Shown: positions 24,419 to 43,274, counted from the first letter of the stretch. The stretch: DNA of 63,051 nt from Azospirillaceae bacterium (GCA_035627915.1 DASPKT010000427.1:1-63051), one strand, 5' to 3'. Notes: a model not told the origin generated them from the letters alone. Numbers and translations: made by a program.

Positions 24419-24739
24419 TCAGCCGTGCAGGTCGCCGAGCCCCGTCAGGCGGATCGTTCCCTTGCCGGGCAGCGTGACCTGCAACTCCAGCGTCCCGCCG
24501 GCGGCCTCCACGAACCGCCGCAGCGTGGAGAGGTAGAGGTCCGTCTGCCGCTCGATCTTGTGCACGGACGGCTGCTTGATGCCGAGCGCGTCGGCGATCT
24601 GCTCCTGGCTGCGCTCGGCCAGCAGCCGCAAGGCCTTCAGCCCCTCGATCTCGTCCAGCAGCTCCTGTGCCCTGGCCTCGACGGCTTCGCGCTCTTCCCC
24701 CGGCAGCGTATCCAGGAACTCCTCAAGCGTGCGTCCCAT
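24419..24739 (-). CDS. XRE-family HTH antitoxin (HigA-like)
   Basis: 106 aa. The HTH is SQEQIADALGIKQPSVHKIER. It overlaps the upstream toxin gene by 17 nt. Confidence 0.7.
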   Translation of the reverse strand: MGRTLEEFLDTLPGEEREAVEARAQELLDEIEGLKALRLLAERSQEQIADALGIKQPSVHKIERQTDLYLSTLRRFVEAAGGTLELQVTLPGKGTIRLTGLGDLHG

Positions 24740-25088
24740 GGCCCACTCCTTTCAGGTATTCGTCGAACCGCCGGTCGGCGACGGCGATCAGGGTGCGGTA
24801 GAACCGCCGTTGCGAGACGCCGCTCTTGTCTCCGGCAACGAGAAGGATCGCGGCGCGTTCCGGATCGAAGGCGAACGCCACGCGCCACGCGCCGTCGCCG
24901 GCGGCGAAGCGCAACTCCTTCATGTTGCGGTGACGCGAGCCCGCCAGGGTGTCGGCATAGGGACGCCCGAGGGTCGGTCCCTCGATGGCGAGCAGCCTTG
25001 CGTGGGCCAGCAGGGCGACACGCACTGCCGGCGGGAGGTTCCGGACCTCATCCTCGAACTCGTCGTGCAGCCGCACCGTCCACGCCAT
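24723..25088 (-). CDS. RelE/HigB-superfamily toxin (Gp49-like)
   Basis: 121 aa with ...MKELRFAAGDGAWRVAFAFDPERAAILLVAGDKSG... The toxin-first gene order matches HigBA modules. Confidence 0.7.
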   Translation of the reverse strand: MAWTVRLHDEFEDEVRNLPPAVRVALLAHARLLAIEGPTLGRPYADTLAGSRHRNMKELRFAAGDGAWRVAFAFDPERAAILLVAGDKSGVSQRRFYRTLIAVADRRFDEYLKGVGHGTHA

Positions 25089-25154
25089 GGCCGTATCATA
25101 GCCTGCGGGCTATGCGCCGATCAATAGCCTCTAGGCTATATGTGGCGGCGCCCC

Positions 25155-26513
25155 TCAGAACCGCAGCGTGAACACGGTCCCGCCGCCGTCGGCGTCCGAG
25201 ACGCCGATGGTGCCGCCGTGGGCCAGCATGATCTGGCGGCAGAGCGACAGGCCGACGCCGGAGCCCTCGCGCTTGGTGGTGAAGAAGGGGACGAAGATCT
25301 TGTCGGCGACCTCGGGCGGGATGCCGGGGCCGTTGTCGGCGACCGACAGGATGACGCGGCCGTACTCGTCCAGGTGGGCGGCGACGCGGATGGCGGCGCC
25401 CTCGCGCCCCGCCAGCGCCTCCGCGGCGTTCTTCACCAGGTTGATCAGCACCTGGTCCAGCATGTCGGCGTCGGCCAGCACCTCCAGGCTGGGCGGCAGG
25501 ACCAGCGTGTCCAGCGCCACCCCGCGCTCCGCCAGCGCCGGGCCCATCAGCTTCTCCAGCCGCTCCATCATGTCCTTCAGGCGGAACCGCTCCATCTGCG
25601 GGCGCGGCACCTGGGTGAACTGGCGGTAGCGCTCCACGAAGCGCAGCAGCCCGCCGGCGCGGCGGGTCACCGTGTCCATCGCCTCCGCCACGTCGTTGAG
25701 GTCTTCGGCCAGGTCCTGCCTGTCGGCCAGCCGCTCCCGCAGGTCGCCCAGCAGCGACTGGGCGGTGCGGGCCAGCGAGGAGACGGGGGTCAGCGAGTTC
25801 ATCATCTCGTGCGTCAGCACCCGCACCAGGTCGTGCCAGGCGCGCACCTCCGTCGCCTCCAGCTCGCCCCCGATGTTCTGGAGGGAGACCAGCATGCGCG
25901 ACTCGCCGCCGATGGTCATCTGGGTCGCCTGGACGGTCAGCTGCTGAAGCCCCGGGCCGCCCACCACCTTCACCAGCCGCCGCTCCCCCGGCTTCAGGGT
26001 GCGCAGCGCGTCGGCGACGGTGCCGCCCTCGTCCAGCCGGCGGATCAGGTCCTCGTGCCCCAGCAGCTTGCGCGCGGCGTTGTTCAGCAGCTCCACCCGG
26101 CCGTCGGGGAAGACGGCGGCCAGCGCCACCGGCACGTGCTCCACCAGCACGTTCAGGTAGTCGGCCTGCTGCTCCTTGTCGGCGCGGGTGGCGCGGAACT
26201 TCTCCAGCACGCCGGAGAAGGCGGTGCCCAGCTCGTCGAAGGCGGTGCCGAGGCCCCGCATGGAGAAGCTCTGCTGGAAGTCGGAATGGGCGATGGCGGT
26301 CAGGAAGCGCGACAGCTCCCGGTTCGTCGTCTGCACCACCCGCAAGAGCCCGCCGATCTGAAGCAGCAGCGCCACCGCGACCAGGAACGCCGTCGCCCGG
26401 TACTCGGTGGCGACCAGCAGGATGCCCAGCAGCATGGAGGTGAGCGCCAGCAGCGCCACCCGGATGGTGACGTTCAGCTCGAACCGGCGTGCGCCGACAC
26501 GCTCAAAGCCCAT
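25155..26513 (-). CDS. Sensor histidine kinase with two closely spaced TM helices, a PAS-like region, HisKA and HATPase_c
   Basis: H-box is LTHEMMNSLTPV, N-box is LINLVKNAAEA, and G-boxes are DNGPGI and GSGVGLSL. The N-terminus has TM1 (TIRVALLALTSMLLGILLVA), a loop of only TEYR(A), then TM2 (TAFLVAVALLLQIGGLLRVV). Its start overlaps the regulator stop by 11 nt. Confidence 0.85.
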   Translation of the reverse strand: MGFERVGARRFELNVTIRVALLALTSMLLGILLVATEYRATAFLVAVALLLQIGGLLRVVQTTNRELSRFLTAIAHSDFQQSFSMRGLGTAFDELGTAFSGVLEKFRATRADKEQQADYLNVLVEHVPVALAAVFPDGRVELLNNAARKLLGHEDLIRRLDEGGTVADALRTLKPGERRLVKVVGGPGLQQLTVQATQMTIGGESRMLVSLQNIGGELEATEVRAWHDLVRVLTHEMMNSLTPVSSLARTAQSLLGDLRERLADRQDLAEDLNDVAEAMDTVTRRAGGLLRFVERYRQFTQVPRPQMERFRLKDMMERLEKLMGPALAERGVALDTLVLPPSLEVLADADMLDQVLINLVKNAAEALAGREGAAIRVAAHLDEYGRVILSVADNGPGIPPEVADKIFVPFFTTKREGSGVGLSLCRQIMLAHGGTIGVSDADGGGTVFTLRF

Positions 26514-27921
26514 GCTTTTCCATCCGGCGGTAAAGGGAGGCGCGGGTGATGCCGAGCTCGTCCGCGGTGTGGCTGATGTTGCCGGCGTGCTTCTCCAGCG
26601 CGCGGCGGATCACCTCGCGCTCCACCGCCTCAAGGTCCAGCGTCTTCAGGCTGAGCTCGCCGTCCGCGGCCGGGGCCGCGGCGGGGGCGGCGGCCGGCGC
26701 CGGGGCCGGCTGGCCGCCGGTGGAGGGCAGGGAGAAGTCCTCCGCCTCCAGCACGTCGGCGCCGGACAGGATCATCGCGCGCTCCACCGCGTGGCGCAGC
26801 GCGCGCACGTTGCCGGGCCATCGGTAGCTCATCAGCCGTTGCAGCGCCTCCGCCGAGACGCGCTTGCGCGGCATGTTGTACTTGCGGGCGTAGATGCCGA
26901 TGAAATGCTCCAGCAGGGCCGGGATGTCGTCGGGGCGGTCGCGCAGGGGGGGCAGGTTCAGCTCCACCGTGTTGACGCGGTAGAGCAGGTCCTGGCGGAA
27001 CATGTCCTCGCGCTGCAGCTGCTCCACCGGCATGTTGGTGGCGCAGATCAGGCGCACGTCGATGGGGATCGGCTTGTTGCCGCCGACGGGGAGCACCACC
27101 CGCTGCTCCAGCACCGACAGCAGCTTGCTCTGGAGGTAGAGGGGCAGGTTGCCGATCTCGTCCAGGAACAGGGTGCCGCCCTGGGCGGCGACGAAGCGGC
27201 CGATGCGGTCGTCCTTGGCGTCGGTGAAGGCGCCGCGCTTGTGGCCGAACAGCTCGCTCTCGAACAGCGTCTCCGCCACCGCACCCAGGTCGACCGAGAC
27301 GAAGACCTGGTCGGCGCGGCGGGAGCGGCGGTGGATCTCCCGCGCGATGACCTCCTTGCCGGTGCCGTTCTCGCCCAGGATCAGGACGTTGGCGTCGGTG
27401 GGGGCGGCGCGGTCGACCAGGTCCAGCACCCGGCGCATGACCGGGGAGCTTCCCACCAGCGAGGTCGGCGGGCCGTCCAGCGCCGCCGTCAGCTCCTTGT
27501 TGCGGGCCCCCAGGTGCGCCGCCTCGCGCCGGGACGCCGTCAGCTTGATGGCGGACAGCAGCGTCGCCACCAGCCGCTCGTTCTGCCAGGGCTTCAGCAC
27601 GAAGTCGGTGGCGCCCTGCTTCATCGCGTCCACCGCCGTGCCGACGTCGCCGTAGGCGGTGATGAGGATGACCGACAGCGTGGCATCGATCTCCAGCACC
27701 TTCTTCAGCCACTGGAACCCCTCGCGCCCGGTGTTGGCGCCGATGGCGAAGTTCATGTCCAGCAGCACCGCGTCGAAGGCGTTCTCCTTCAGCAGCACCG
27801 GGATGCGGTCGGGGCGGGATTCCGTGTGGACGGCGATGCCCTCTCGCTTCAGCAGCAGGCGGGCGGCGATCAGGATGTCCTCGTCGTCGTCCACCATCAG
27901 GACGCGGCCGGCGGTGGCCAT
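26503..27921 (-). CDS. Sigma-54-dependent response regulator (NtrC-family enhancer-binding protein)
   Basis: Receiver domain (VLMVDDDEDIL...DAVLLDMNF...KP). AAA+ domain with Walker A GENGTGKE, a GAFT loop variant (GHKRGAFTDA) and ESELFGH. C-terminal Fis-type HTH (NISHTADELGITRASLYRRM). Confidence 0.9.
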   Translation of the reverse strand: MATAGRVLMVDDDEDILIAARLLLKREGIAVHTESRPDRIPVLLKENAFDAVLLDMNFAIGANTGREGFQWLKKVLEIDATLSVILITAYGDVGTAVDAMKQGATDFVLKPWQNERLVATLLSAIKLTASRREAAHLGARNKELTAALDGPPTSLVGSSPVMRRVLDLVDRAAPTDANVLILGENGTGKEVIAREIHRRSRRADQVFVSVDLGAVAETLFESELFGHKRGAFTDAKDDRIGRFVAAQGGTLFLDEIGNLPLYLQSKLLSVLEQRVVLPVGGNKPIPIDVRLICATNMPVEQLQREDMFRQDLLYRVNTVELNLPPLRDRPDDIPALLEHFIGIYARKYNMPRKRVSAEALQRLMSYRWPGNVRALRHAVERAMILSGADVLEAEDFSLPSTGGQPAPAPAAAPAAAPAADGELSLKTLDLEAVEREVIRRALEKHAGNISHTADELGITRASLYRRMEKHGL

Positions 27922-27976
27922 GGTCGGTCGTGCTCGTGTCGTGGAAGGGGCGTCGTGGAAAGGGCGTCGGGGGCGG

Positions 27977-28005
27977 TGTCCGGATGCGGACAGGGCAACT
28001 GTCCG
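27977..28005. promoter_or_regulatory. Candidate enhancer (UAS): TGTCCG-GATG-CGGACA palindrome plus an overlapping GGACAG-N5-CTGTCC
   Basis: A 16-bp palindrome lies at 27977-27992, and a third TGTCCG half-site at 28000-28005. It sits ~100 bp upstream of a sigma-54 -24/-12 element. The same 16-mer occurs as its reverse complement at 33428-33443. Confidence 0.55.
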
Positions 28006-28089
28006 ATATCGTACATCTGCACGGAAGCGAACGCATCCATTTTCGGCCGCATCCGGTCAGGAACCCAGGATTTCCGCGGCTTCCCGATC

Positions 28090-28104
28090 TGGCACGCCCC
28101 TTGC
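28090..28104 (+). promoter_or_regulatory. Sigma-54 (-24/-12) promoter TGGCAC-GCCCC-TTGC
   Basis: cTGGCACGccccTTGCc matches YTGGCACG-N4-TTGCW with correct spacing. It lies 48 nt upstream of the small-ORF ATG at 28152 and next to the divergent sigma-54 EBP gene. Confidence 0.7.
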
Positions 28105-28151
28105 CATCAGGGGAACAACGGACCGACACCTTCACTCAAGGGAAGCCAGCC

Positions 28152-28298
28152 ATGACCGACATCTCCATCCAGGCCACCGACACCTTCTCCTTCGGCAGCT
28201 TCCTGCGCGACGTGGTCGCCGAGCTGGCGAACCCGACGCTGGCCGTCGCCGCCGCCTTCGCCTGCGTGACGGTGAAGATGTTCGCCGGCTTCATGTGA
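28152..28298 (+). CDS. Small (48 aa) predicted membrane peptide, unknown family
   Basis: MTDISIQATDTFSFGSFLRDVVAELANPTLAVAAAFACVTVKMFAGFM. AAGGGA lies 9-14 nt upstream of the ATG. G/C third positions are strongly preferred (about 46 of 48 sense codons by eye). The C-terminus is a hydrophobic helix. The gene is the first in a sigma-54 transcript. It is a paralogue-like counterpart of 33561..33713. Confidence 0.5.
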   Translation: MTDISIQATDTFSFGSFLRDVVAELANPTLAVAAAFACVTVKMFAGFM

Positions 28299-28357
28299 TC
28301 GGGGTCGAGTAAAGCCGGCAAACCTCCGGGCGGGGGCCCAGGGCGGGGAGGGAAGAA

Positions 28358-30811
28358 ATGTTCCAGCACTACGCGACCATGGCCTGGCGCAACCTTGCGC
28401 GCCACCGGCTGCACGCCGCGATCAACCTGCTCGGCCTCAGCGTCGGGCTGGCGGCGGCGCTGCTGATCTTCATGTATGTGCGCCACGAACTCTCCTACGA
28501 GCGGCATTTCGCCAATTCCGACCGCATCTACCGCCTGGCGACGGAGCCGCTGGAGCCGGGGCAGGGCGACGACGGGCGCAAGCACGCCCTGTCGCCGCAG
28601 CCGATGGCCGAGCTGCTGATGCAGGCCGCCGACCAGATCGGCATCGAGGCGGCGACCCGGTACGAGTTCGGGACCTTCATCCTGGCGCGGGGCGAGGCGC
28701 GCTTCTTCGAGAAGACCACCTTCGTCCACGCGGACTTCTTCCGCATGTTCGACTTCCCCTTCCGCCACGGTGACCCGGCGACGGCCCTGGCGACGCCGGA
28801 CGGGATGGTGATGTCCCGCGAGCTGGCCCAGAAATACTTCGGCGACGCCGATCCCATCGGCCAGGCCATCCTGGTCAACAACAAGCACCTGTTCCGCGTC
28901 ACCGGCGTGCTGGACGAGCCGCGCGGCCCGTCGGAGCTGGAGGGGGAGCTGTTCGTCTCCACCGCCAACCCGGTCCTGTCGCCGCCGCTGTGGATGAACC
29001 AGAACGGCCCGTCCTTCGTGATGGCGCGGCCCGGCGTCAGCCAGGCGGAGCTGCAGCGCCGCATGGACGGGGCGCTGGAGGGGCTGCTGCCGCAGCAGGC
29101 GGTCGAGGACAACGGCCGCTTCCGCGTCCTGCTGGAGCGGCTGGCCGACACCCACCTGCATTCCGGGCGCTGGGTCTTCATCAACCAGGCCCCGGCCTCC
29201 GCCGACACGGTCTACGCCATGATCGGCATCGGGCTGGCGCTGCTGGCGATGGTCGCCATCAACTACACCAACCTCTCCACCGCGCGGGCCACCCTGCGCG
29301 CAAAGGAGATCGGCCTGCGCAAGGCGCTGGGCGCCGGCCGGGCGCAGCTGATCCGGCAGTTCATCGGCGAGTCGGTGGCGCTGTCGCTGGCCGGCCTGCT
29401 GCTGGCGCTGGTGCTGGTGGAGCTGTCGCAGACGGCCTTCGCCGACCATCTCGGCATCCGCTTCATGGGCTCCCTCGTGGGCGATCCCGTGGCGCTGCTG
29501 GCAGGCCTCGCCCTGGCGCTCGGCCTCGGCCTGCTGGGCGGCGCCTATCCGGCGCTGGTGCTGAGCGGCTTCCGCCCGGCCGCGGTGCTGCGCGCCGCCC
29601 GGGTGAACGTCGGCCCGGCCTCGCGGCTGCGCCAGGTGCTGGTCGTCACCCAGTTCGCCACCGCCGTGGTGCTCGCCATCTCCACCGTCGTCGTCTATGC
29701 CCAGGCCCGCTACGGCGCCACCGCCAACCTGGGCTTCCAGCCGGAGATGCGGGTGGTGCTGTCCGGCCTCGACCGCGAGCCCGTGGTGCAGCGGCGCGAG
29801 GTGCTGCGGGAGGAGATGCTGCGCATCCAAGGCGTCACCGGTGCCGCCACCTCCTGGATCGTGCCGGGCGCCTCGGGCTCCATGGGGCGCGGGCTCAGGC
29901 GGGCCGACCAGTCGCCGGAGGACGACACCAACGTCCAGCTCTTCCGCATCGGGCACGAGTACCTGGACGTGCTGGGCGTGCGCCTGCTGGCCGGCCGCAC
30001 CTTCTCCCGCGAGGTCCCCGCCGACGTGATGCCCCCGGCCAGCCGCGGCCCTGTCACCGGTGCCGTCAACGTGGTCATCAACCGCGAGGCGGTGCGCCGG
30101 CTGGGCTTCGCCTCGCCCGAGGCGGCGCTGGGCCAGCCGCTGGTCTTCGAGGACGACAACCGCGATCCCGTCACGGTCGTCGTGGTCGGGGTCAGCGACA
30201 ACGTCCGCCAGCACAGCGCCCGCAGCGAGATCCGCCCGGCCCTCTACATCGTGGAGCAGGAGGGGGTGTACCCGCAGTCCTTCATGACCCTGACCCTGGA
30301 CGGGCGCGAGCTGGACCGGACGCTTGCCGCCATCGACGCCACCTGGCGCCGCTTCGCCCCCGACCTCCCGGTGCGCCGGCGCTTCCTGGACGACCAGCTG
30401 GAGGCCATGTACCTCCAGGACCGGCGCCTTGCCGGCGTGCTGGCGGGCTTCTCCGGCCTGACCCTGGTCATCGCCTGCCTGGGCCTGTTCGCCCTGGCCG
30501 CCAGCGAGGCGGAGCGGCGGACCAAGGAGATCGGCGTGCGCAAGGTGCTGGGCGCCGGCGTGCCCGCCCTGGTGCGGCTCATGGTGTGGCAGTTCTCCCG
30601 CCCCGTCGCCATCGCCATCCTGATCGCCTGGCCGCTCGCCTGGTGGATGATGGGGAACTGGCTGCAGGGCTTCGTCCACCGCATCCCGCTGGACCCCACC
30701 CTGTTCCTCCTGACCGGGGTGGCTACCCTGTTGGTGGCATGGATGACCGTCGCCGGTCACGCGTTCAAGGTAGCGTCGGCCAGGCCCATCCAGGCCCTCC
30801 GATACGAGTAA
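28358..30811 (+). CDS. ABC transporter permease, duplicated FtsX/MacB-type (permease 1, 817 aa)
   Basis: The N-terminal TM is MFQHYATMAWRNLARHRLHAAINLLGLSVGLAAALLIF. It has two large extracytoplasmic domains, each followed by an FtsX-type 3-TM bundle (...KEIGLRKALGA... and ...KEIGVRKVLGA...). The C-terminus is ...IQALRYE. No ATPase gene lies in its operon. Confidence 0.85.
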   Translation: MFQHYATMAWRNLARHRLHAAINLLGLSVGLAAALLIFMYVRHELSYERHFANSDRIYRLATEPLEPGQGDDGRKHALSPQPMAELLMQAADQIGIEAATRYEFGTFILARGEARFFEKTTFVHADFFRMFDFPFRHGDPATALATPDGMVMSRELAQKYFGDADPIGQAILVNNKHLFRVTGVLDEPRGPSELEGELFVSTANPVLSPPLWMNQNGPSFVMARPGVSQAELQRRMDGALEGLLPQQAVEDNGRFRVLLERLADTHLHSGRWVFINQAPASADTVYAMIGIGLALLAMVAINYTNLSTARATLRAKEIGLRKALGAGRAQLIRQFIGESVALSLAGLLLALVLVELSQTAFADHLGIRFMGSLVGDPVALLAGLALALGLGLLGGAYPALVLSGFRPAAVLRAARVNVGPASRLRQVLVVTQFATAVVLAISTVVVYAQARYGATANLGFQPEMRVVLSGLDREPVVQRREVLREEMLRIQGVTGAATSWIVPGASGSMGRGLRRADQSPEDDTNVQLFRIGHEYLDVLGVRLLAGRTFSREVPADVMPPASRGPVTGAVNVVINREAVRRLGFASPEAALGQPLVFEDDNRDPVTVVVVGVSDNVRQHSARSEIRPALYIVEQEGVYPQSFMTLTLDGRELDRTLAAIDATWRRFAPDLPVRRRFLDDQLEAMYLQDRRLAGVLAGFSGLTLVIACLGLFALAASEAERRTKEIGVRKVLGAGVPALVRLMVWQFSRPVAIAILIAWPLAWWMMGNWLQGFVHRIPLDPTLFLLTGVATLLVAWMTVAGHAFKVASARPIQALRYE

Positions 30812-30842
30812 GGGCTTGCATCCGTTCCCTGCTCGTGACCTG

Positions 30843-30880
30843 GGGCCCGTCCGGACCGCTCTCCGGACGGGCCCGTTTTC
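30843..30880 (+). terminator. Rho-independent terminator
   Basis: GGGCCCGTCCGGA-ccgctc-TCCGGACGGGCCC forms a 13-bp perfect stem and is followed by GTTTTCCTTT. It lies 32 nt after the permease-1 stop. Confidence 0.75.
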
Positions 30881-30995
30881 CTTTGGGTTCTTTGCGGGGG
30901 CGTTCCGGCCATGCCCGCCTCAGCGGCAGTGGGGGGGCGGGGACAGTCCGGCGACAGCATGTGGCCTGAGCGCTCCCGGTCCCGACACTCACCCC

Positions 30996-31134
30996 GTCAT
31001 TCCCGCGGAGGCGGGAATCCAGGCATTCAGCGTGCTATGTCCCTGGGCGGAAAGGCGCCCACGTCACCGCCGGCGCCCTTTGCCCGGGTTGGACAGCAGG
31101 CCGAATACCTGGACCCCGCCTCCGCGGGGGTGAC
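30996..31134. repeat. 139-bp REP/MITE-like element bounded by palindromic modules
   Basis: Left end GTCATTCCCGCGGAGGCGGGAATCCAGG. Right end CCTGGACCCCGCCTCCGCGGGGGTGAC. It is homologous in ends, length and internal ends to 8978..9117. Confidence 0.65.
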
Positions 31135-31169
31135 GGCAAAAGGCGCGGAGGGCGCCCCCGTCCCCTATC

Positions 31170-33335
31170 TCACCCCGGCACGCTGCGCGGGGTGCGGTGG
31201 CGGCCGGAGCGGGTGAGCTCCTCCTCCAGGGCGGCGACCAGGTCGGCGACGGCGAAGGGCTTGGGCAGGAGGCGCGCCTCGTCCTTCGGCACCAGCTCCT
31301 CGCTGTAGCCGGTCATCAGCACGACCGGCAGCAGGGGCCAGCGCTGGCGCACGATGCGCAGCAGGCCGACGCCGCTGAGCTCCCCCGGCATGACGATGTC
31401 GCTCAGCACCAGGTCCGCCTCGTCGCCGGCCTCCAGCATCCGCAGCGCCTCGTCGCCCGAGGTGGCGCGGCGCAGGCTGTAGCCGAGGTCGCCCAGGATG
31501 GCGCTCAGCATGCTGCCGACGACCGGGTCGTCCTCGACCAGCAAAATGCGGCCGCCGACCGCGTTCAGGCTGCGCCGCAGGTCGCCGCGGCCGGCCGCCG
31601 GCACCTTGTCGGAGCGCGGCAGCAGGATGGTGACCGTCGTGCCGAGGCCCTGGCGGCTGTCGATCAGGATGGTGCCGTGCGACTGGCGGGCGAAGCCGTA
31701 GGCCTGGCTGAGGCCGAGGCCGGTGCCGCCGTTCGCCTGCTTGGTGGTGAAGAAGGGCTCGAACGCGCGGGCCACCGTGTCGGGCGACATGCCGGCGCCG
31801 GTGTCCTCCACCGACAGGGCGACGTAGGCGCCGGTCAGCTCGCCCGGGTCCACGCCGGCGCTGCGGTTGGTGTTGCGCGCGCGGATGGTCAGCACGCCCG
31901 GTTCCGGCATTGCGTCGCGGGCGTTCGCCAGGATGTTGAGGATCGTGACCTCGAACTGGGTCTGGTCCACCTCGACCGTCCAGAGGTCGGGGGCGATGTC
32001 CACCTCGAGCCTGATGTCGGGGCGCAGCGTGCGCGCCATCAGCTCCGACATGGCGAGCAGCTGGTCGCGGATGGCGATCGGCTTGGGCTCCAGCGGCTGG
32101 CGGCGCGCGAAGGCGAGAAGCTGCCGGGTCAGCTTGGCGCCGCGGTCGACGGCCTGGTGCCCGGCCTGGAGCACGGGCGCCAGGCCGGCGGCGGACGCCT
32201 TGCGCTCCACCAGGGTCAGGCAGGCCGCCATGGCCTGGAGCAGGTTGTTGAAGTCGTGCGCGACGCCGCGGGTCATCTGGCCCATGGCCTCCAGCCGCCG
32301 CGCCGCCTCGTAGGCGATGTCCTGGCGGCGGCGGATGCGCAGCTCGCGCACGAACAGCCAGGCGAACAGCCCGGCCAGGGCGACGCAGAGCAGCCCGCCG
32401 CCGGCCATCAGCAGGGCGGCCTGCCGCAGCGGCGCCGCGAAGATCTCCCGGGGCAGGCCGAAATGGATGGACCAGCCGACATCCGGCAGCTTGCGGTAGA
32501 CCGAGCGCAGCGGGAACCCGTCCAGCCCGACGCTGTCGTAGAAGCCCTCCGGCTCCTCCCGGCGGACCTGGAGCACGCGGGCGCTGGCCATGGTGCCGAC
32601 CAGCGCCTCGTCGCCGCGGGTGCGGGCGACGATGTGGCCGCTGCCGTCCACCACCACGCCGATCCAGTCGGAGGGCAGCCCGTTCGCCAGCAGGATCTCC
32701 TTGAGGTGGCGGGGATCGACCACGGCGGACAGCAGGTAGCGCAGCCTTCCGTCGCGCACGACGGGCACCCGCACCGCGAAGGCCGCCCGGTTGCGCGGGC
32801 CGCGCAGGACCGTGCCGACGACCGGCGCGCCCGTGGCGACGGCGCGGGCGTGGCTCTCCAGGTCGACGACCTTGCCGGGGGCGCCGGCCACCTGCTCGGG
32901 CGCGTCGGCCAGCCGGTTGCCCTCCGGGTCGCTCAGGACCAGCGTCTTCCACAGGGGCTGGTGCGCCCGCGCCCGCTCCGCCATGGCGAAGAAGGCGGCG
33001 CGGTCGAAGCCGCCGGCGTCAACCGGCAGCGCCGCCGCCAGCATCTGCAGGCTGGCGACCTGGGCCGCCAGGTCGCCCTCCAGCCGCTGGGTCAGGTGCG
33101 CCACGCGGTTGGCGGCATCCTGCTCCATCGCCGCCTGCCGCTGTTGCAGCCAGGCGGCGCCCAGCATGACCGACAGCCCGACGATGGGCAGCAGGGCCGC
33201 CAGCGCCAGCAGGCTGAGGTGCCGCTGGGAAGAGGGACTGCCCGCGCGGCCGGACGGGGAACCGGGACGGGATCGGAGCGGCCACAAGGCGTCTGGCGTC
33301 CCTTCGCTGGATGCCGGGGCGGCGGGGAGCGGCAT
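31170..33335 (-). CDS. Hybrid sensor histidine kinase/response regulator with a periplasmic Cache-like sensor domain
   Basis: 721 aa. TM1 is followed by ~270 aa of extracytoplasmic domain, then TM2. H-box MTRGVAHDFNNLLQAM. HATPase motifs NILANARDAM, DTGAGM and GTGLGLS. C-terminal receiver (ILLVEDDPVV...DLVLSDIVMP...KP). Confidence 0.85.
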   Translation of the reverse strand: MPLPAAPASSEGTPDALWPLRSRPGSPSGRAGSPSSQRHLSLLALAALLPIVGLSVMLGAAWLQQRQAAMEQDAANRVAHLTQRLEGDLAAQVASLQMLAAALPVDAGGFDRAAFFAMAERARAHQPLWKTLVLSDPEGNRLADAPEQVAGAPGKVVDLESHARAVATGAPVVGTVLRGPRNRAAFAVRVPVVRDGRLRYLLSAVVDPRHLKEILLANGLPSDWIGVVVDGSGHIVARTRGDEALVGTMASARVLQVRREEPEGFYDSVGLDGFPLRSVYRKLPDVGWSIHFGLPREIFAAPLRQAALLMAGGGLLCVALAGLFAWLFVRELRIRRRQDIAYEAARRLEAMGQMTRGVAHDFNNLLQAMAACLTLVERKASAAGLAPVLQAGHQAVDRGAKLTRQLLAFARRQPLEPKPIAIRDQLLAMSELMARTLRPDIRLEVDIAPDLWTVEVDQTQFEVTILNILANARDAMPEPGVLTIRARNTNRSAGVDPGELTGAYVALSVEDTGAGMSPDTVARAFEPFFTTKQANGGTGLGLSQAYGFARQSHGTILIDSRQGLGTTVTILLPRSDKVPAAGRGDLRRSLNAVGGRILLVEDDPVVGSMLSAILGDLGYSLRRATSGDEALRMLEAGDEADLVLSDIVMPGELSGVGLLRIVRQRWPLLPVVLMTGYSEELVPKDEARLLPKPFAVADLVAALEEELTRSGRHRTPRSVPG

Positions 33336-33394
33336 CCTAGCCGAAAGCGCCCGGCGGCTTCACCCGCCTTGTCGGCATGGGAGGGGCGGGCGGC

Positions 33395-33450
33395 TGTCCG
33401 GTTCGGCGGGACCCTGTCCGCCGGCGCTGTCCGCATCCGGACAGTGTCCG
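33395..33450. promoter_or_regulatory. Candidate enhancer (UAS) cluster: TGTCCG-CATC-CGGACA palindrome plus three further TGTCCG half-sites
   Basis: TGTCCG occurs at 33395, 33415, 33428 and 33445. The 16-bp palindrome at 33428-33443 is the exact reverse complement of 27977-27992. It lies ~70 bp upstream of the second sigma-54 promoter. Confidence 0.55.
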
Positions 33451-33475
33451 GAAACGAACGGGGTAGATCGAACGA

Positions 33476-33488
33476 TAAGTTATTGATT
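33476..33488 (-). promoter_or_regulatory. IHF-consensus site (AATCAATAACTTA on the minus strand)
   Basis: Matches WATCAA-N4-TTR exactly. It is located between the UAS cluster and the -24 element, in the only AT-rich patch of this intergenic region. Confidence 0.45.
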
Positions 33489-33505
33489 TTGCACGCGCCG
33501 GACGC

Positions 33506-33520
33506 TGGCACGCCGCTTGC
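33506..33520 (+). promoter_or_regulatory. Sigma-54 (-24/-12) promoter TGGCAC-GCCGC-TTGC
   Basis: cTGGCACGccgcTTGCt lies 41 nt upstream of ATG 33561. It matches the 28089-28105 promoter at 15 of 17 positions. Confidence 0.7.
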
Positions 33521-33560
33521 TGATAATGCGGCGGGTAGAACACAAGAGGGGACGCCCGTC

Positions 33561-33713
33561 ATGACCGAACCGATCACCCGCACGGACACGCCCGCCACGG
33601 AGCGCACCGTCACCGAGCGCATCGAGGATGCGGTCACGTCAGTCAACCCGGACGTCTGGCTCGCCAGCGCCCTCGTGGTGGTGGTGATCCGATGCCTGGG
33701 CGGCCTCGTCTGA
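33561..33713 (+). CDS. Small (50 aa) predicted membrane peptide, unknown family
   Basis: MTEPITRTDTPATERTVTERIEDAVTSVNPDVWLASALVVVVIRCLGGLV. AGAGGGG lies 9 nt upstream of the ATG. It is hidden inside the shadow ORF 31197..33713. Its layout matches the 28152 peptide: MT(D/E) start, acidic/Thr-rich N-half, an NP motif, and a hydrophobic helix containing one Cys. Confidence 0.45.
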   Translation: MTEPITRTDTPATERTVTERIEDAVTSVNPDVWLASALVVVVIRCLGGLV

Positions 33714-33745
33714 CCGTAGTCTCGTCGAGCGGGAACGACATCAAA

Positions 33746-35005
33746 ATGGGTATGGACCGAAAGATCGAGAAGCGCTCGCGCTTCAAGCGCCAGCACCTGA
33801 TCGGCGCCGCCGTCGGCGCGCTGGCCCTGGGGGCGGCGGGCTTCATGGCCGTCGGCGGCTCCGGCGGCAGCACCGTCCGGGTGGCCGAGGAGCGGCTGGT
33901 GACGGCCGAGGTGAAGCAGGGGCAGTTCGAGGACTTCATCCCCGTCCGGGGCGCCGTGGAGCCGCTGAACAGCGTGTTCCTGGACTCGGTCGAGGGCGGC
34001 CGGGTGGAGAAGCGCTTCGCCGAGGCCGGCCAGATGGTCAAGGCCGGCCAGCCCCTGGTGGAGCTGTCCAACACCGACCTGCAGCTGGAGGTCATCGCCC
34101 GCGAGGCGCAGGTGATCGAGCAGCTGAACCAGCTCCGCACGGTGGAGCTGGGCCTCCAGACCAACCGCCTCACCAACAAGCGCGAGCTGGTGGAGGTCGA
34201 GTACAAGCTGGTGCAGCTGAAGCGCGACCTCGACCGCCGCTCGCAGCTGGTGAAGACGAACGCCGTCAGCCAGGCCCAGTTCGAGGACAGCAAGGACGAG
34301 TACGACTACTACCAGCGCCGCCGCGAGGTCCTGCAGGAGAGCATCCGCGTCACCGACGGCATGCGCACCGAGCAGTACGAGCAGCTGAAGGCCGCCACCT
34401 CCAAGCTCCAGGAGAACCTGGAGTACGCGCGCCGCAACCTGGAGAACCTGGTGGTCAAGGCGCCTGTCGACGGCCAGTTGACCCAGCTGGAGGCGGAGAT
34501 CGGCCAGACCATGCAGCGCGGCCAGCGCCTGGGCCGGGTCGACCGCATCGACGGCTTCAAGGTCTCCGCCCAGGTCGACGAGTTCTACCTGCCGCGCCTG
34601 GACGTGGGCCAGACCGCCGAGGTGCAGATGGGCTCGGCCAACACGGTGCTGCGCGTCGCCAAGATCTACCCGCAGGTCCGCGACGGCCAGTTCCGGGTGG
34701 ACCTGGAGTTCGCCGCCGAGCCGCCCAAGGACATCCGCAGCGGCCAGACGCTCCAGATGCGCCTGAAGCTGGGCGCCACCACGTCGGCGCTGCTGATCCC
34801 CAACGGCGCCTTCTTCCAGGACACCGGCGGCGACTGGATCTTCGTCGTCGGCTCCGACGGCAAGTACGCCACCAAGCGCCGCGTCCAGCTCGGCCGCCGC
34901 AACGCCCAGGTCATCGAGGTCAAGGGCGGCCTGGAACCGGGCGAGCGCGTCATCACCTCCGCCTACGGCGACATGGTCCGCATGGACCGCATCCAGCTCA
35001 ACTGA
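33746..35005 (+). CDS. HlyD/MacA-type periplasmic adaptor (membrane fusion protein)
   Basis: N-terminal TM (LIGAAVGALALGAAGFMAV), a lipoyl-like hairpin, a long coiled coil (QLEVIAREAQVIEQLNQLRTVELGLQ...) and a beta-barrel C-domain. The alternative start at 33752 is equally possible. Confidence 0.8.
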   Translation: MGMDRKIEKRSRFKRQHLIGAAVGALALGAAGFMAVGGSGGSTVRVAEERLVTAEVKQGQFEDFIPVRGAVEPLNSVFLDSVEGGRVEKRFAEAGQMVKAGQPLVELSNTDLQLEVIAREAQVIEQLNQLRTVELGLQTNRLTNKRELVEVEYKLVQLKRDLDRRSQLVKTNAVSQAQFEDSKDEYDYYQRRREVLQESIRVTDGMRTEQYEQLKAATSKLQENLEYARRNLENLVVKAPVDGQLTQLEAEIGQTMQRGQRLGRVDRIDGFKVSAQVDEFYLPRLDVGQTAEVQMGSANTVLRVAKIYPQVRDGQFRVDLEFAAEPPKDIRSGQTLQMRLKLGATTSALLIPNGAFFQDTGGDWIFVVGSDGKYATKRRVQLGRRNAQVIEVKGGLEPGERVITSAYGDMVRMDRIQLN

Positions 35006-35034
35006 ACGACCGAACCGATAGAAGGGAGTAGTCC

Positions 35035-35715
35035 ATGCTGAAACTCGTGAACCTGACCAAGGTCTACCGCACCGAAGAGGTGGAGACGACCGCGCTGAAT
35101 TCCGTGAACATCCATGTCAAGCACGGCGAGTTCGTCGCCATCATGGGCCCGTCGGGCTGCGGCAAGTCCTCGCTGCTGAACATCATCGGCATGCTCGACA
35201 ATCCCAGCGGCGGCGAATACTGGTTCGACGGCGAGAACGTCGCCGGCTACGGCGAGCGCAAGCTGGCCGACATCCGCAAGAAGAACATCGGCTTCATCTT
35301 CCAGAGCTTCAACCTGATCGACGAACTCACCGTGTTCGAGAACGTCGAGCTGGCGCTGCTCTACCACGACATCCCGGCGCGCGAGCGCAAGGAGCGGGTC
35401 AAGGCGGCGCTGGAGAAGGTGAACATCGCCCACCGCGAGACCCACCTGCCGCAGCAGCTCTCCGGCGGCCAGCAGCAGCGCGTCGCCATCGCCCGCGCCG
35501 TCGTCTCCAAGCCCAAGATGCTGCTGGCGGACGAGCCGACCGGCAACCTCGACAGCGCCAACGGCGACGAGGTCATGAAGATGCTGACCGACCTGAACGC
35601 CGAGGGCACGACCATCGTCATGGTCACCCACTCCATGCCGCACGCCCAGTACGCGCGCCGCATCATCAACCTGTTCGACGGCCAGGTCGTGGCCGAGAAC
35701 CTGCGCGCCGCCTGA
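35035..35715 (+). CDS. ABC transporter ATP-binding protein (MacB/LolD-type NBD)
   Basis: Walker A GPSGCGKSS, Q-loop, signature LSGGQQQRVAIARA, Walker B MLLADEPT and H-loop VTHS. Confidence 0.9.
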   Translation: MLKLVNLTKVYRTEEVETTALNSVNIHVKHGEFVAIMGPSGCGKSSLLNIIGMLDNPSGGEYWFDGENVAGYGERKLADIRKKNIGFIFQSFNLIDELTVFENVELALLYHDIPARERKERVKAALEKVNIAHRETHLPQQLSGGQQQRVAIARAVVSKPKMLLADEPTGNLDSANGDEVMKMLTDLNAEGTTIVMVTHSMPHAQYARRIINLFDGQVVAENLRAA

Positions 35716-35762
35716 CCGGCGCCGGGTTCCTGGGGGGAAGTCCAAGGGGGGAGGGCGGCGGG

Positions 35763-38219
35763 ATGCTGCGCAACTACATCGTCACTGCGGTACGCAACCT
35801 GCTGAAGCACCGGCTCTACTCGGCGATCAACATCGCCGGGCTGGCGGTCGGGCTGGCGGCCTGCATCCTGATCGCGCTGTTCGTGCGCGACGAGTTCAGC
35901 TACGAGCGCTTCTGGCCGAAGCTGGACCGGATGCACCGGGTCGCCCTGACCTTCTACATCCCGGGCCGCGAGCCCATGATGGTCGGCGACAGCCAGTTCG
36001 TCATGGGCCCGCTGCTGAAGGAGGACTTCCCCGGGATCGAGGAGGTGGTCCGCTTCGCGCCCCAGCGCACCCTGGTGGACCGCGCCGACAACCCCGCGCT
36101 GGAGGTGCTGACCTACGCCGACCCCGGCGTCTTCCGGGTGTTCGGCTACGAGTTCCTGCGCGGCACGGCCGACGGCGCGCTGGACCGCCCCGGCACCGTC
36201 GTGCTCACCCAGCGCATGGCGCGCAAGTGGTTCGGCGACGAGGACCCGGTCGGCCAGTCCCTGAAGGTCGACGGCCAGCACCTGCTGGAGGTCACCGGCG
36301 TGGTGAAGGACCTCCCTCACAACACGCACCTGAAGTCGGTCGACTTCCTGGTCGCCATGGAGTCGAAGAGCAACCGCCTGAACAAGGAGGCGCGGGAGAG
36401 CTGGACCACCATGCAGGGGTCCACCTACGTGCTGCTGCGCGACGGCGCCTCCGCCGCCGAGGTGCAGGCCGGGCTGAAGGACTTCGTCGCCCGCCGCGCC
36501 GGCAACATCGCCCTGCCGGGCGGCGCCGTCGCCGCCACCTCCATCTTCAAGTACGACCTCCAGCCCGTCGCCGACATCCACCTGCACTCCGCCGGCTTCC
36601 AGGGCGAGGAGGACCCGGGCGACTTCGGCATGGTCATGGCCTTCGCCGGCATCGCCGTCCTGATCCTGGGCATCGCCTGCATCAACTTCATGAACCTGGC
36701 GACGGCCCGCGCCTCGGGCCGGGCGCGGGAGGTCAGCATCCGCAAGGTGGTGGGCGCCCAGCGCCGCCAGATCGTGGCGCAGTTCCTGGGCGAGTCCGTG
36801 GTCGTCACCCTGCTGGCGCTGGTCATCGCCGTCGCCCTGGTGGAGCTGGCGCTGCCCTGGTTCTCCGGCTTCGTGAACAAGCCGCTGGGCATCGATTATG
36901 CCGGCAGCCTGGGCGACGTGGCGATGCTGGTGGCCCTGACCGTCCTGGTCGGCGTCGCCGCCGGTTCCTACCCCGCCTTCGTCCTGTCCGCCTTCAAGCC
37001 GGCGGCGGTGCTGAAGGCCAACAAGTCCTCGGCCGGCGGCGGGCGGCTGCGCGCGGTGCTGGTCGTGGTGCAGTTCGCCATCTCCATCTCCCTGATGGTG
37101 GCGACCGCCGTGGTGTACGCCCAGATGGAGTACGCGAAGTCCATGCGCCTCGGCTACGACCGGGAGCACGTGCTGGCGATCTCCGGCACCCACCGCGGCG
37201 CCGCCCGCGCGGCGATCGACAGCCTGCGCGAGGAGATCGGCAAGCTGCCGGGCGTCGTCACCGTGGCCCGCGCCGGCGGCTATCCCACGGACGGGAACGA
37301 GAACAACAACATCGTCCAGATGCCGGACAGCGATCCCAGCAACCCGCTGGTGATCGGCAACCAGAGCGCCGACGCCAACTTCTTCAAGGCGCTGGGCATC
37401 CAGACCGTGGCCGGCCGCACCTTCGACGAGAGCTTCGCCACCGACGTGCTGCCCGAAGACCCGGCGGAGGCGGCCAAGCGCCCGTCCGCCCTGGTGCTGA
37501 ACCGCGCCGCCGTGAAGCGCCTGGGCTTCGCCTCGCCGGAGGCCGCCATCGGCCAGACCTTCAAGATCGGCGTCAGCGCCGACGGGCTGTCCCCGGTGAC
37601 GGTGGTCGGCGTGGTGGACGACGTCCTCCAGGGCTCCATCCGGGCCGCGGTGAAGCCGATGATGTACTACATGGCCGACCCGTACCCCTTCCTGGTCGTG
37701 CGCCTGTCCGGCCAGGAGCTGAACGCCACGGTCAACCGGATCGACGAGACCTGGAAGCGCCTGGTCCCCGGCACGCCGATCCGCCGCACCTTCCTGGAGG
37801 ACAGCTTCAACGCCCTCTACGCGGCGGAGGAGCGGCAGGGCCAGATGTTCGCCACCTTCTCCGGCCTCGCCATCGTCATCGCCTGCCTGGGCCTGTTCGG
37901 CCTGGCCTCCTTCACCGCGGAGAAGCGCACGAAGGAGATCGGCATCCGCAAGGTGCTGGGCGCCAGCGTGCCCGAGATCGTGCGGCTGCTGGTGTGGCAG
38001 TTCTCCCGCCCGGTGCTGGTGGCGAACCTGATCGCCTGGCCGCTCGCCTGGTACGCCATGCGCGACTGGCTGGACGGCTTCGCCTACCGCGTCGAGCTGA
38101 GCCCGCTCTACTTCGCGGTGGCCGGGATCGCGGCGCTGACCATCGCCTGGGCGACGGTCGCCAGCCACGCCACCCGGGTCGCCATGACCAAGCCCTCCAG
38201 CGCCCTGCGCTACGAATAA
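35763..38219 (+). CDS. ABC transporter permease, duplicated FtsX/MacB-type (permease 2, 818 aa)
   Basis: Starts MLRNYIVTAVRNLLKHRLYSAINIAGLAVGLAACILIALFVRDEFSYE... It has two FtsX modules and ends ...SSALRYE. Confidence 0.85.
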   Translation: MLRNYIVTAVRNLLKHRLYSAINIAGLAVGLAACILIALFVRDEFSYERFWPKLDRMHRVALTFYIPGREPMMVGDSQFVMGPLLKEDFPGIEEVVRFAPQRTLVDRADNPALEVLTYADPGVFRVFGYEFLRGTADGALDRPGTVVLTQRMARKWFGDEDPVGQSLKVDGQHLLEVTGVVKDLPHNTHLKSVDFLVAMESKSNRLNKEARESWTTMQGSTYVLLRDGASAAEVQAGLKDFVARRAGNIALPGGAVAATSIFKYDLQPVADIHLHSAGFQGEEDPGDFGMVMAFAGIAVLILGIACINFMNLATARASGRAREVSIRKVVGAQRRQIVAQFLGESVVVTLLALVIAVALVELALPWFSGFVNKPLGIDYAGSLGDVAMLVALTVLVGVAAGSYPAFVLSAFKPAAVLKANKSSAGGGRLRAVLVVVQFAISISLMVATAVVYAQMEYAKSMRLGYDREHVLAISGTHRGAARAAIDSLREEIGKLPGVVTVARAGGYPTDGNENNNIVQMPDSDPSNPLVIGNQSADANFFKALGIQTVAGRTFDESFATDVLPEDPAEAAKRPSALVLNRAAVKRLGFASPEAAIGQTFKIGVSADGLSPVTVVGVVDDVLQGSIRAAVKPMMYYMADPYPFLVVRLSGQELNATVNRIDETWKRLVPGTPIRRTFLEDSFNALYAAEERQGQMFATFSGLAIVIACLGLFGLASFTAEKRTKEIGIRKVLGASVPEIVRLLVWQFSRPVLVANLIAWPLAWYAMRDWLDGFAYRVELSPLYFAVAGIAALTIAWATVASHATRVAMTKPSSALRYE

Positions 38220-38242
38220 TCCCTGGAAATCGGGAAACACAG

Positions 38243-40717: not shown

Positions 40718-40725
40718 TCCGCAGC

Positions 40726-40761
40726 GGGGCGCCCCTCCCCGGGCAGGGGGAGGGGCGCCCC
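40726..40761 (+). other. GC-rich 15-bp perfect stem-loop between permease genes 3 and 4
   Basis: GGGGCGCCCCTCCCC-gggcag-GGGGAGGGGCGCCCC. No U-tract follows, so it is not called a terminator. Confidence 0.5.
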
Positions 40762-40794
40762 CGATCTCAACCGGCGGCCCGGGGGGCTGGCGCC

Positions 40795-43242: not shown

Positions 43243-43274
43243 ACGACGAACAGACGTCCTGGGGGATGCCCGCC

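Follow-up and report, generated by a model that had tools for sequence, protein, structure and literature searches.

How are the genes on either side of the intergenic region at positions 27,977 to 28,104 of an Azospirillaceae metagenome contig controlled, and which protein would do so? The region belongs to a stretch of 63,051 bp with 73% G+C (GCA_035627915.1, DASPKT010000427.1:1-63051), which we call the window throughout. An original prediction, drawn up from this DNA alone, read the region as a sigma-54 promoter with an upstream TGTCCG-N4-CGGACA enhancer, divergent from an operon for an enhancer-binding protein (EBP) and a kinase. The divergent arrangement is borne out, with the EBP gene at 26503-27921 and the kinase gene at 25155-26513, both on the minus strand. 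On comparative grounds, we judge it very probable that the element at 28090-28104, designated P1, is a sigma-54 promoter and that the dyads located 61-113 bp upstream of P1 and of a second promoter, P2, serve as the enhancer for this EBP.

Two candidate sigma-54 promoters face paralogous small genes

The prediction had placed a -24/-12 element of the form TGGCAC-N5-TTGC with canonical spacing at P1, and this is what we read there (TGGCACGCCCCTTGC, plus strand). The same pattern is found once more, at P2 (33506-33520, plus strand; TGGCACGCCGCTTGC), and neither strand of the window holds any other match. Dinucleotide-preserving shuffles (n = 100) predict 0.13 matches, and none of them gave two. 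A search allowing one mismatch returned no further match in the window. At P1 and P2 the GG and GC doublets are exactly 10 bp apart, as is characteristic of sigma-54 promoters. P2 fits CTGGCACG-N4-TTGCT in full and P1 deviates at the final W alone. Each promoter faces one of two paralogous small open reading frames (ORFs), sm1 and sm2, which are preceded by a Shine-Dalgarno sequence and lie 36-41 nt 3′ of the predicted transcription start; the distance from promoter to ATG is 48 nt for sm1 and 41 nt for sm2. The sigma-54 promoter is also kept at the orthologous position in relatives.

Tandem dyads precede both promoters

The palindrome that had been noted about 100 bp upstream of P1, TGTCCGGATGCGGACA, is located at 27977-27992, 113 bp before the promoter, and its exact reverse complement, TGTCCGCATCCGGACA, recurs at 33428-33443, 78 bp before P2, as had also been reported. 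With the pattern relaxed to TGTNCG-N4-CGNACA, the entire window holds only three dyads, which begin at 27977, 28000 and 33428. A scan of the window with the sigma-54 consensus and the 16-bp dyad, proposed in the prediction as a check, places the consensus at P1 and P2 alone and full dyads at the same two promoters. Sites are found 113, 90 and, for a weak candidate, 72 bp before P1, and 78 and 61 bp before P2. Both regions therefore have the features of an upstream activator sequence (UAS), namely dyad symmetry, at least two sites and a location about 60-150 bp before the -24 element. A second, overlapping dyad, GGACAG-N5-CTGTCC, had been described as well. The sequence is present at 27988-28004, but it is the junction between the full 16-bp sites at 27977-27992 and 28000-28015 and not an independent element.

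We scored the window with a log-odds position weight matrix (PWM) made solely from sites in foreign genomes, with the window sites excluded. The top four matches of the 63 kb are the two P1 sites and the two P2 sites, in the order 28000 (26.3), 33428 (20.9), 27977 (20.9) and 33445 (18.6). Next come the weak third P1 candidate at 28018 (11.7) and a match in a coding region (11.6), with the background at a mean of -30 and a standard deviation of 10. A further candidate at 28044-28059 (CGGCCGCATCCGGTCA, three mismatches) was rejected, with a score of 5.3 and no conservation in L099, the closest relative.

Two other kinds of repeat were observed near these sites. Exact TGTCCG half-sites without a proper right arm occur at 33395-33400 and 33415-33420, giving five half-sites in the roughly 65 bp before P2; the one at 33415 is kept only in the closest relative and the one at 33395 is not kept. 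About 2.3 copies of a 14-bp tandem repeat, gtcgtggaa(g/a)gggc, occupy positions 27938-27969, in the interval that separates the first enhancer site from the EBP start codon; the repeat coincides with a 34-bp gap in L099.

The motif accompanies related activator genes across phyla

Relatives of the EBP were scanned in one genome per species, which gave 80 loci at 48-60% identity, and the motif counts below refer to 76 loci with orthologous activators of 49-60% identity. The loci span Bacteroidota, Acidobacteriota, Sphingomonadales, Kordiimonas, gammaproteobacteria, Gemmatimonadota, Ignavibacteria, Zixibacteria and Latescibacterota. In these loci the EBP and kinase genes are divergent either from genes for a membrane-fusion protein (MFP), an ATPase and a duplicated permease or from an orphan duplicated permease gene; both arrangements are present in the window. 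The density of TGTNCG-N4-CGNACA is 0.70 per kb over the 600 bp 5′ of the EBP gene and 0.0098 per kb elsewhere in the loci, a 72-fold enrichment, and with up to one mismatch a site is found in those 600 bp in 49 of the 76 loci. AT-rich Bacteroidales and gammaproteobacteria retain a tandem core, GTNCR-N4-YGNAC. The frequency matrix from 80 sites reads T-G-T-n-C-G-n-W-W-n-C-G-n-A-C-A.

The spacing of the sites is similarly regular. Adjacent sites are mostly 21 bp apart (12 of 32 intervals, with 18 of 32 at 20-24 bp), the distances from site to promoter form clusters at 55-69 and 85-94 bp, and the sigma-54 promoter that follows the motif is always directed away from the EBP gene. In Bacteroidota this promoter reads TGGCAC-N5-TTGGC; upstream of pump genes in eight loci (L006, L008, L019, L024, L026, L027, L046 and L057) the -12 element is TTGGC(A/T) and not TTGCW, as in TGGCACAGCGCTTGGCT. 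A second dyad cluster in Sphingomonadales is 57-68 bp from a second sigma-54 promoter, with the EBP gene 450-490 bp away. In four loci (L041, L045, L050 and L056) such an extra cluster and promoter (TGGCACGGCTCATGC) stand between the EBP and MFP genes. The extra unit in Sphingomonadales precedes a small ORF of another kind, about 55-60 aa long with a hydrophobic segment at the N terminus; two of the encoded peptides end in ..AMGCASILL.

Dyads resembling TGT-N10-ACA are bound by several unrelated regulators, and the window sites lie near divergent start codons, 55 bp from that of the EBP gene and 93 bp from that of a hybrid kinase gene. They could be operators of some other DNA-binding protein, for instance one that represses the divergent genes for kinase and regulator, with the EBP acting from solution or from other sites. 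We consider this improbable, since the EBP is the only DNA-binding protein consistently encoded beside the motif across phyla and no regulator gene with a DNA-binding domain adjoins P2. In addition, it is the distance to the sigma-54 promoter that is fixed, not the distance to the EBP start, as the second Sphingomonadales cluster illustrates.

Footprints in close relatives

L099 is an Azospirillaceae metagenome-assembled genome whose EBP is 94% identical over the part present. Its P1 region retains both dyads, their 23-bp spacing and the promoter (CTGGCACGCCGCTTGCCAT), while the flanks and spacers have diverged. The recurrence of the 16-mer at P1 and P2 had been taken as unlikely to arise by chance. 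This is supported for the half-sites, but identity of the 4-bp spacer is incidental: because the L099 spacer is TCAG where the window has GATG, the exact match between the P1 and P2 16-mers is partly a coincidence. From this comparison, the conserved signal is the half-sites TGTNCG and CGNACA, not the 4-bp spacer.

At P2, a search of 596 Gb of genomes for the 33-bp unit TGTCCG-N4-CGGACA-N-TGTYCG-N4-CGRACG gave 14 exact matches, against about 0.02 expected by chance (our own estimate, for uniform base composition). Nearly all come from Azospirillaceae, Nitrospirillum species among them. A -24/-12 element stands at +78/79 in nine of the 14, and eight of these nine retain the downstream sequence, which consists of an sm2-like peptide gene followed by pump genes, with an ATPase 89-96% identical where present. 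When ten Azospirillaceae P2 regions are aligned, the conserved parts are only dyad 1, dyad 2, an A/T-rich ATTGAT box and CTGGCAYRCCCYTTGCC. The ATTGAT core falls at the position of a predicted site for integration host factor (IHF) at P2. The regions 5′ of three further small peptide genes, described below, retain two dyads and a sigma-54 promoter, with an IHF box in one of them. The claim that the upstream dyad acts as an enhancer is thus favored by the comparison, through enrichment of the motif 5′ of orthologous EBP genes and clean footprints. In a plasmid collection we found short matches of 72-76% to Azospirillum and other genera and no close relative.

These footprints also bear on the possibility that the dyads are chance matches, or a dispersed repeat or hairpin with no regulatory role. 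The window is G+C-rich, TGTCCG occurs in it 46 times, and the dyad could form a hairpin with a 6-bp stem and a 4-nt loop. Full dyads, on the other hand, stand at two promoters only, and a search of 25000-36000 against Rfam gave no RNA family match and therefore no evidence for a leader RNA element. The sites lie 5′ of the predicted starts and so would not be transcribed with the operons, which counts against a hairpin. Together, the enrichment across phyla, the window-independent PWM, the matches of the 33-bp unit and the P2 footprint effectively refute this reading.

A third explanation is that the dyads mainly autoregulate the EBP-kinase operon by promoter occlusion and add little to activation of P1 and P2. 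Site 1 is only about 22 bp from the EBP start codon in L099, and in many proteobacterial loci the first site is 37-73 bp from it, in keeping with the 55 bp in the window. We give this very little weight, as sites are also present at P2, which is 5.5 kb away from the EBP gene, and in Nitrospirillum upstream of pump operons that do not adjoin the EBP gene. The quantity that is conserved is again the distance of the sites from the -24 element.

The predicted activator and its kinases

A six-frame search of the window for GAFTGA-like loops gave a single EBP, the one that we propose to bind the dyads, and its gene overlaps the kinase gene by 11 nt (Table 1). The protein carries LLDMNF, GENGTGKE and LFLDEIG, in agreement with an NtrC-family response-regulator EBP. 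Its sigma-54 contact loop reads GAFTDA instead of GAFTGA (residues 230-235; window 27217-27234). Among 81 members of the EBP family, GAFTDA is found in 58 and GSFTDA in 17, together 75. A survey of Desulfovibrio EBPs ranks GAFTDA among the variants compatible with activation (PMC4641369). At least 90% of the orthologues conserve the recognition helix, ..LG(L/I)TRxSLYRR... The EBP scores below the cut-off of every named NCBIfam EBP equivalog (NtrC, AtoC, ZraR, PrsR, NtrX, GlrR and others), the best being PEP_resp_reg (361.5 against 502.6) and AtoC (359 against 714).

The sensor kinase gene directly follows the EBP gene in nearly all related loci. A hybrid kinase gene sits between the two operons, and its product has a periplasmic domain of about 240 residues. 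In Azospirillaceae relatives the same position is taken by a related kinase or by single-domain response regulators, and outside Azospirillaceae a hybrid kinase next to the module is not conserved. Just 3′ of the sensor kinase gene, 24419-25088 (minus strand) holds overlapping genes for a Gp49/HigB-like protein (121 aa) and an HTH_3/HTH_37 protein (106 aa), which look like a toxin-antitoxin pair.

Table 1. Predicted promoters, enhancer sites and genes of the locus, in window coordinates.
Feature	Position	Strand	Remarks
Sensor histidine kinase	25155-26513	-	Two adjacent N-terminal membrane helices, PAS, HATPase; no periplasmic domain (Pfam and hydropathy scan)
Response-regulator EBP	26503-27921	-	Pfam REC, sigma-54 AAA+, AAA lid, HTH_8; proposed dyad binder
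P1 enhancer site 1 (distal)	27977-27992		TGTCCGGATGCGGACA; PWM 20.9; half-sites kept in L099, spacer differs
P1 enhancer site 2	28000-28015		TGTCCGATATCGTACA; 23 bp from site 1; best PWM score, 26.3; TGTCCGATAACGTACA in L099, same 23-bp spacing
Possible weak P1 site 3	28018-28033		TGCACGGAAGCGAACG; PWM 11.7, fifth in window; right half alone kept in L099; doubtful
Sigma-54 promoter P1	28090-28104	+	-24 GG 28091-28092, -12 GC 28103-28104; predicted start ~28115-28117
sm1, 48-aa peptide	28152-28298	+	First P1 gene; C-terminal hydrophobic helix; G+C at third codon positions (GC3) 0.98; GGGAAG 8 nt before ATG
PERM1, duplicated FtsX/MacB-PCD permease, 817 aa	28358-30811	+	Pfam MacB_PCD, 2x FtsX; no adjacent ATPase gene
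Intrinsic terminator, P1 operon end	30843-30884	+	13-bp stem, 11 G-C pairs, then GTTTTCCTTT
Hybrid histidine kinase	31170-33335	-	HisKA, HATPase_c, Response_reg; two membrane helices flank residues 65-303; divergent from P2
P2 enhancer site 1	33428-33443		TGTCCGCATCCGGACA; PWM 20.9; half-sites invariant in 10 Azospirillaceae loci
P2 enhancer site 2	33445-33460		TGTCCGGAAACGAACG; PWM 18.6; 17 bp from site 1
IHF consensus	33476-33488	-	AATCAATAACTTA; between P2 enhancer and promoter; sole WATCAANNNNTTR match in window, 0.02 expected
Sigma-54 promoter P2	33506-33520	+	Second exact consensus match; predicted start ~33531-33533
sm2, 50-aa peptide	33561-33713	+	First P2 gene; GC3 0.90
Membrane-fusion (periplasmic adaptor) protein	33746-35005	+	HlyD_3, HlyD_D23; NCBIfam RND_mfp above cut-off
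ABC ATPase	35035-35715	+	Pfam ABC_tran; 60-75% identical across phyla, 89-96% within Azospirillaceae
Four tandem duplicated FtsX/MacB-PCD permeases	35763-45749	+	PERM2 35763-38219, PERM3 38243-40717, PERM4 40795-43242, PERM5 43266-45749 (Pfam, start mapping)

The P1 and P2 operons are predicted to encode an export system

The products of the two operons together would make up an envelope export system resembling MacAB, with a single ATPase and five duplicated permeases (Table 1). The permeases have the architecture of the ADOP family, with two MacB_PCD and two FtsX domains. Membership in the ADOP duplicated permease family (TIGR03434) was rejected, with PERM1 and PERM2 at 300.2 and 313.9 bits against a cut-off of 622.3. 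The same applies to the darobactin exporter, since all scores are under the cut-offs (DarD 282 against 375, DarC 221 against 450 and DarB 137 against 700 bits). Three minus-strand ORFs of 818-827 aa at 38210-45698 were also set aside as permease genes; they have no Pfam match and are shadows of the plus-strand PERM3-5. The membrane-fusion ORF opens at 33692 and its likely start is MGMDRKIEK at 33746/33752, where the orthologues begin MDRKI or MDKKI.

The first gene of each operon encodes a small peptide. The two peptides are paralogues (alignment z = 6.4), the L099 copy of sm1 is 69% identical, and sm1 resembles the neighboring genes in GC3 and is also called as a gene on the source contig. 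Neither Pfam nor NCBIfam gave a match to the family. A profile search with sm1 and sm2 recovered three further peptides of 44-52 aa (P0003-P0005), each encoded directly 5′ of MFP-ATPase-permease genes. The resulting family of tail-anchored peptides, 44-52 aa long, shares the motif ..ER-x-EDA-x3-VNPD-x-WL-x2-AL-x-VV-x-IRCLGG, and its members outside the window are located at 4001-4147 of L083, 4001-4159 of L087 and 1220-1354 of L088. In Azospirillaceae the peptide gene is always the first of its sigma-54 operon and directly 5′ of the MFP-ATPase-permease genes, as are the sm2 copies of Nitrospirillum.

Proposed mechanism and the points that weigh against it

By analogy with the NtrC family, we hypothesize that the sensor kinase would phosphorylate the receiver domain of the EBP, and that EBP dimers on tandem TGTNCG-N4-CGNACA sites would then assemble an active AAA+ ring. 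A DNA loop, at P2 perhaps aided by IHF bound between the enhancer and the promoter, would bring the ring to sigma-54 RNA polymerase in the closed complex at TGGCAC-N5-TTGC, where ATP hydrolysis would drive promoter opening. The P1 transcript would cover sm1 and the orphan duplicated FtsX permease gene and end at the terminator at 30843, and the P2 transcript would cover sm2 and the genes for the membrane-fusion protein, the ABC ATPase and four duplicated FtsX permeases.

Several observations weigh against this scheme. At P1 there is no match to the IHF consensus WATCAANNNNTTR, and the P1 sites, at 90 and 113 bp, lie about one to two helical turns beyond the family's usual 55-69 and 85-94 bp. 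The P2 sites are 17 bp apart instead of the 21 bp usual elsewhere, which would place two dimers on different faces of the helix; the 17-bp spacing is conserved in Azospirillaceae (14 genomes). Among the related loci, 27 of 76 lack a site with at most one mismatch to the strict pattern, several of which have a looser core. A six-frame search of the window for an RpoN box revealed no rpoN gene. Finally, we found no sigma-54 promoter directed toward the EBP gene, and sigma-70 consensus scans of both intergenic regions found nothing for the EBP or the hybrid kinase gene.

The original prediction had allowed for autoregulation through the shared intergenic region. Because the P1 sites are so close to the EBP start codon, we speculate that their occupancy also dampens the EBP-kinase operon. 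This is our weakest inference. With no promoter found for the EBP operon, autoregulation stays a conjecture, and if it does take place, we conjecture that it would act by occlusion.

Significance of the regulator, its sites and its targets

Literature searches on sigma-54 together with MacB, MacAB or FtsX, on the half-site together with enhancer binding and on ADOP returned no description of this regulator, motif or regulon. The analysis defines a candidate operator, TGTNCG-N4-CGNACA in tandem and usually at 21 bp, and the promoter targets for an uncharacterized family of sigma-54 activators present in at least Pseudomonadota, Bacteroidota, Acidobacteriota, Gemmatimonadota, Ignavibacteria, Zixibacteria and Latescibacterota. 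It also provides a handle on the widespread and poorly understood family of MacB-like pumps and duplicated FtsX permeases, and adds a conserved small membrane peptide to the annotation as the predicted first product of these operons. With candidates for regulator, site and promoter identified, reporter screens for the signal that induces the pump and permease genes become possible, and Nitrospirillum species offer a cultured model with the same 33-bp enhancer.

Comparison with known systems

The enhancer-dependent promoter mechanism proposed here is ordinary, of the textbook NtrC/glnAp2 or NifA type. In enteric bacteria NtrC acts at glnAp2 through phosphorylation-triggered oligomerization and DNA looping, and its sites also overlap and repress a divergent or upstream promoter. 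The locus resembles that system in its response-regulator EBP with a Fis-type helix-turn-helix and in tandem dyads about 100 bp before a -24/-12 promoter. It differs in the site, which for NtrC is TGCACC-N5-GGTGCA, in the targets, which here are export-pump genes and not genes of nitrogen assimilation, and in the EBP score of 336 bits against the NCBIfam ntrC cut-off of 558.6. The 16-mer also fits the NifA UAS, TGT-N10-ACA, exactly, and stands at a similar place, about 60-110 bp before a sigma-54 promoter, with a predicted IHF site between them at one of the two promoters. However, the outer TGT and ACA are no more invariant here than the inner CG (positions 5-6 and 11-12), which is absent from the NifA consensus. 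We rejected a NifA UAS because the EBP has a receiver domain and not a GAF domain, and because it scores 290 bits against the NCBIfam nifA cut-off of 528.85.

GlrR (QseF) binds TGTC-N10-GACA sites with IHF at glmY. The half-site beginning with TGTC, the response-regulator EBP and IHF-assisted looping are features the window would share with it, whereas the spacing here is TGTC-N8-GACA and the EBP scores 286 bits against the GlrR cut-off of 763. The best sequence matches in the PDB, 4l4u (E = 2e-78), 1ny5, 3dzd and 1ojl, relate the REC-AAA+ architecture to Aquifex aeolicus NtrC1 and NtrC4 and to ZraR. These matches reflect the family in general; neither the DNA sites nor the regulons are related, and the contact loop here is GAFTDA or GSFTDA in 75 of 81 members.

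The predicted targets recall MacAB-TolC, DevBCA, DarBCD and ADOP, with an MFP, an ABC ATPase that is either separate or fused, and a permease that combines FtsX with MacB periplasmic core domains, and DarC, DarD, DarB and ADOP are the nearest NCBIfam families. Among the differences, the permease is internally duplicated, with five paralogues per ATPase, and no gene for an outer-membrane factor or modification enzyme adjoins. A further parallel is BceRS-BceAB, a module of Firmicutes for sensing peptide antibiotics, whose kinase, with two membrane helices, also lacks an extracellular sensor domain and is encoded beside an FtsX-type ABC exporter under its control. There the regulator is of the OmpR type and not a sigma-54 EBP, the window instead would encode a Gram-negative tripartite pump with an adaptor, and the link between transporter and kinase is drawn here only by analogy. 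On that analogy, the conserved module, with its kinase lacking a sensor domain, GAFTDA-type activator, tandem dyads and MacB-like pump with several duplicated permeases, could be a Gram-negative counterpart of Bce-type detoxification in which the transporter serves as the sensor, with pump activity or sm1 and sm2 feeding back on the kinase. We think this rather unlikely. If it were true, the system would hold the regulatory key to the large expansions of ADOP/FtsX permeases in Bacteroidota and Acidobacteriota, and the first-gene membrane peptide of 44-52 aa would represent a new class of small regulatory or pump-accessory protein.

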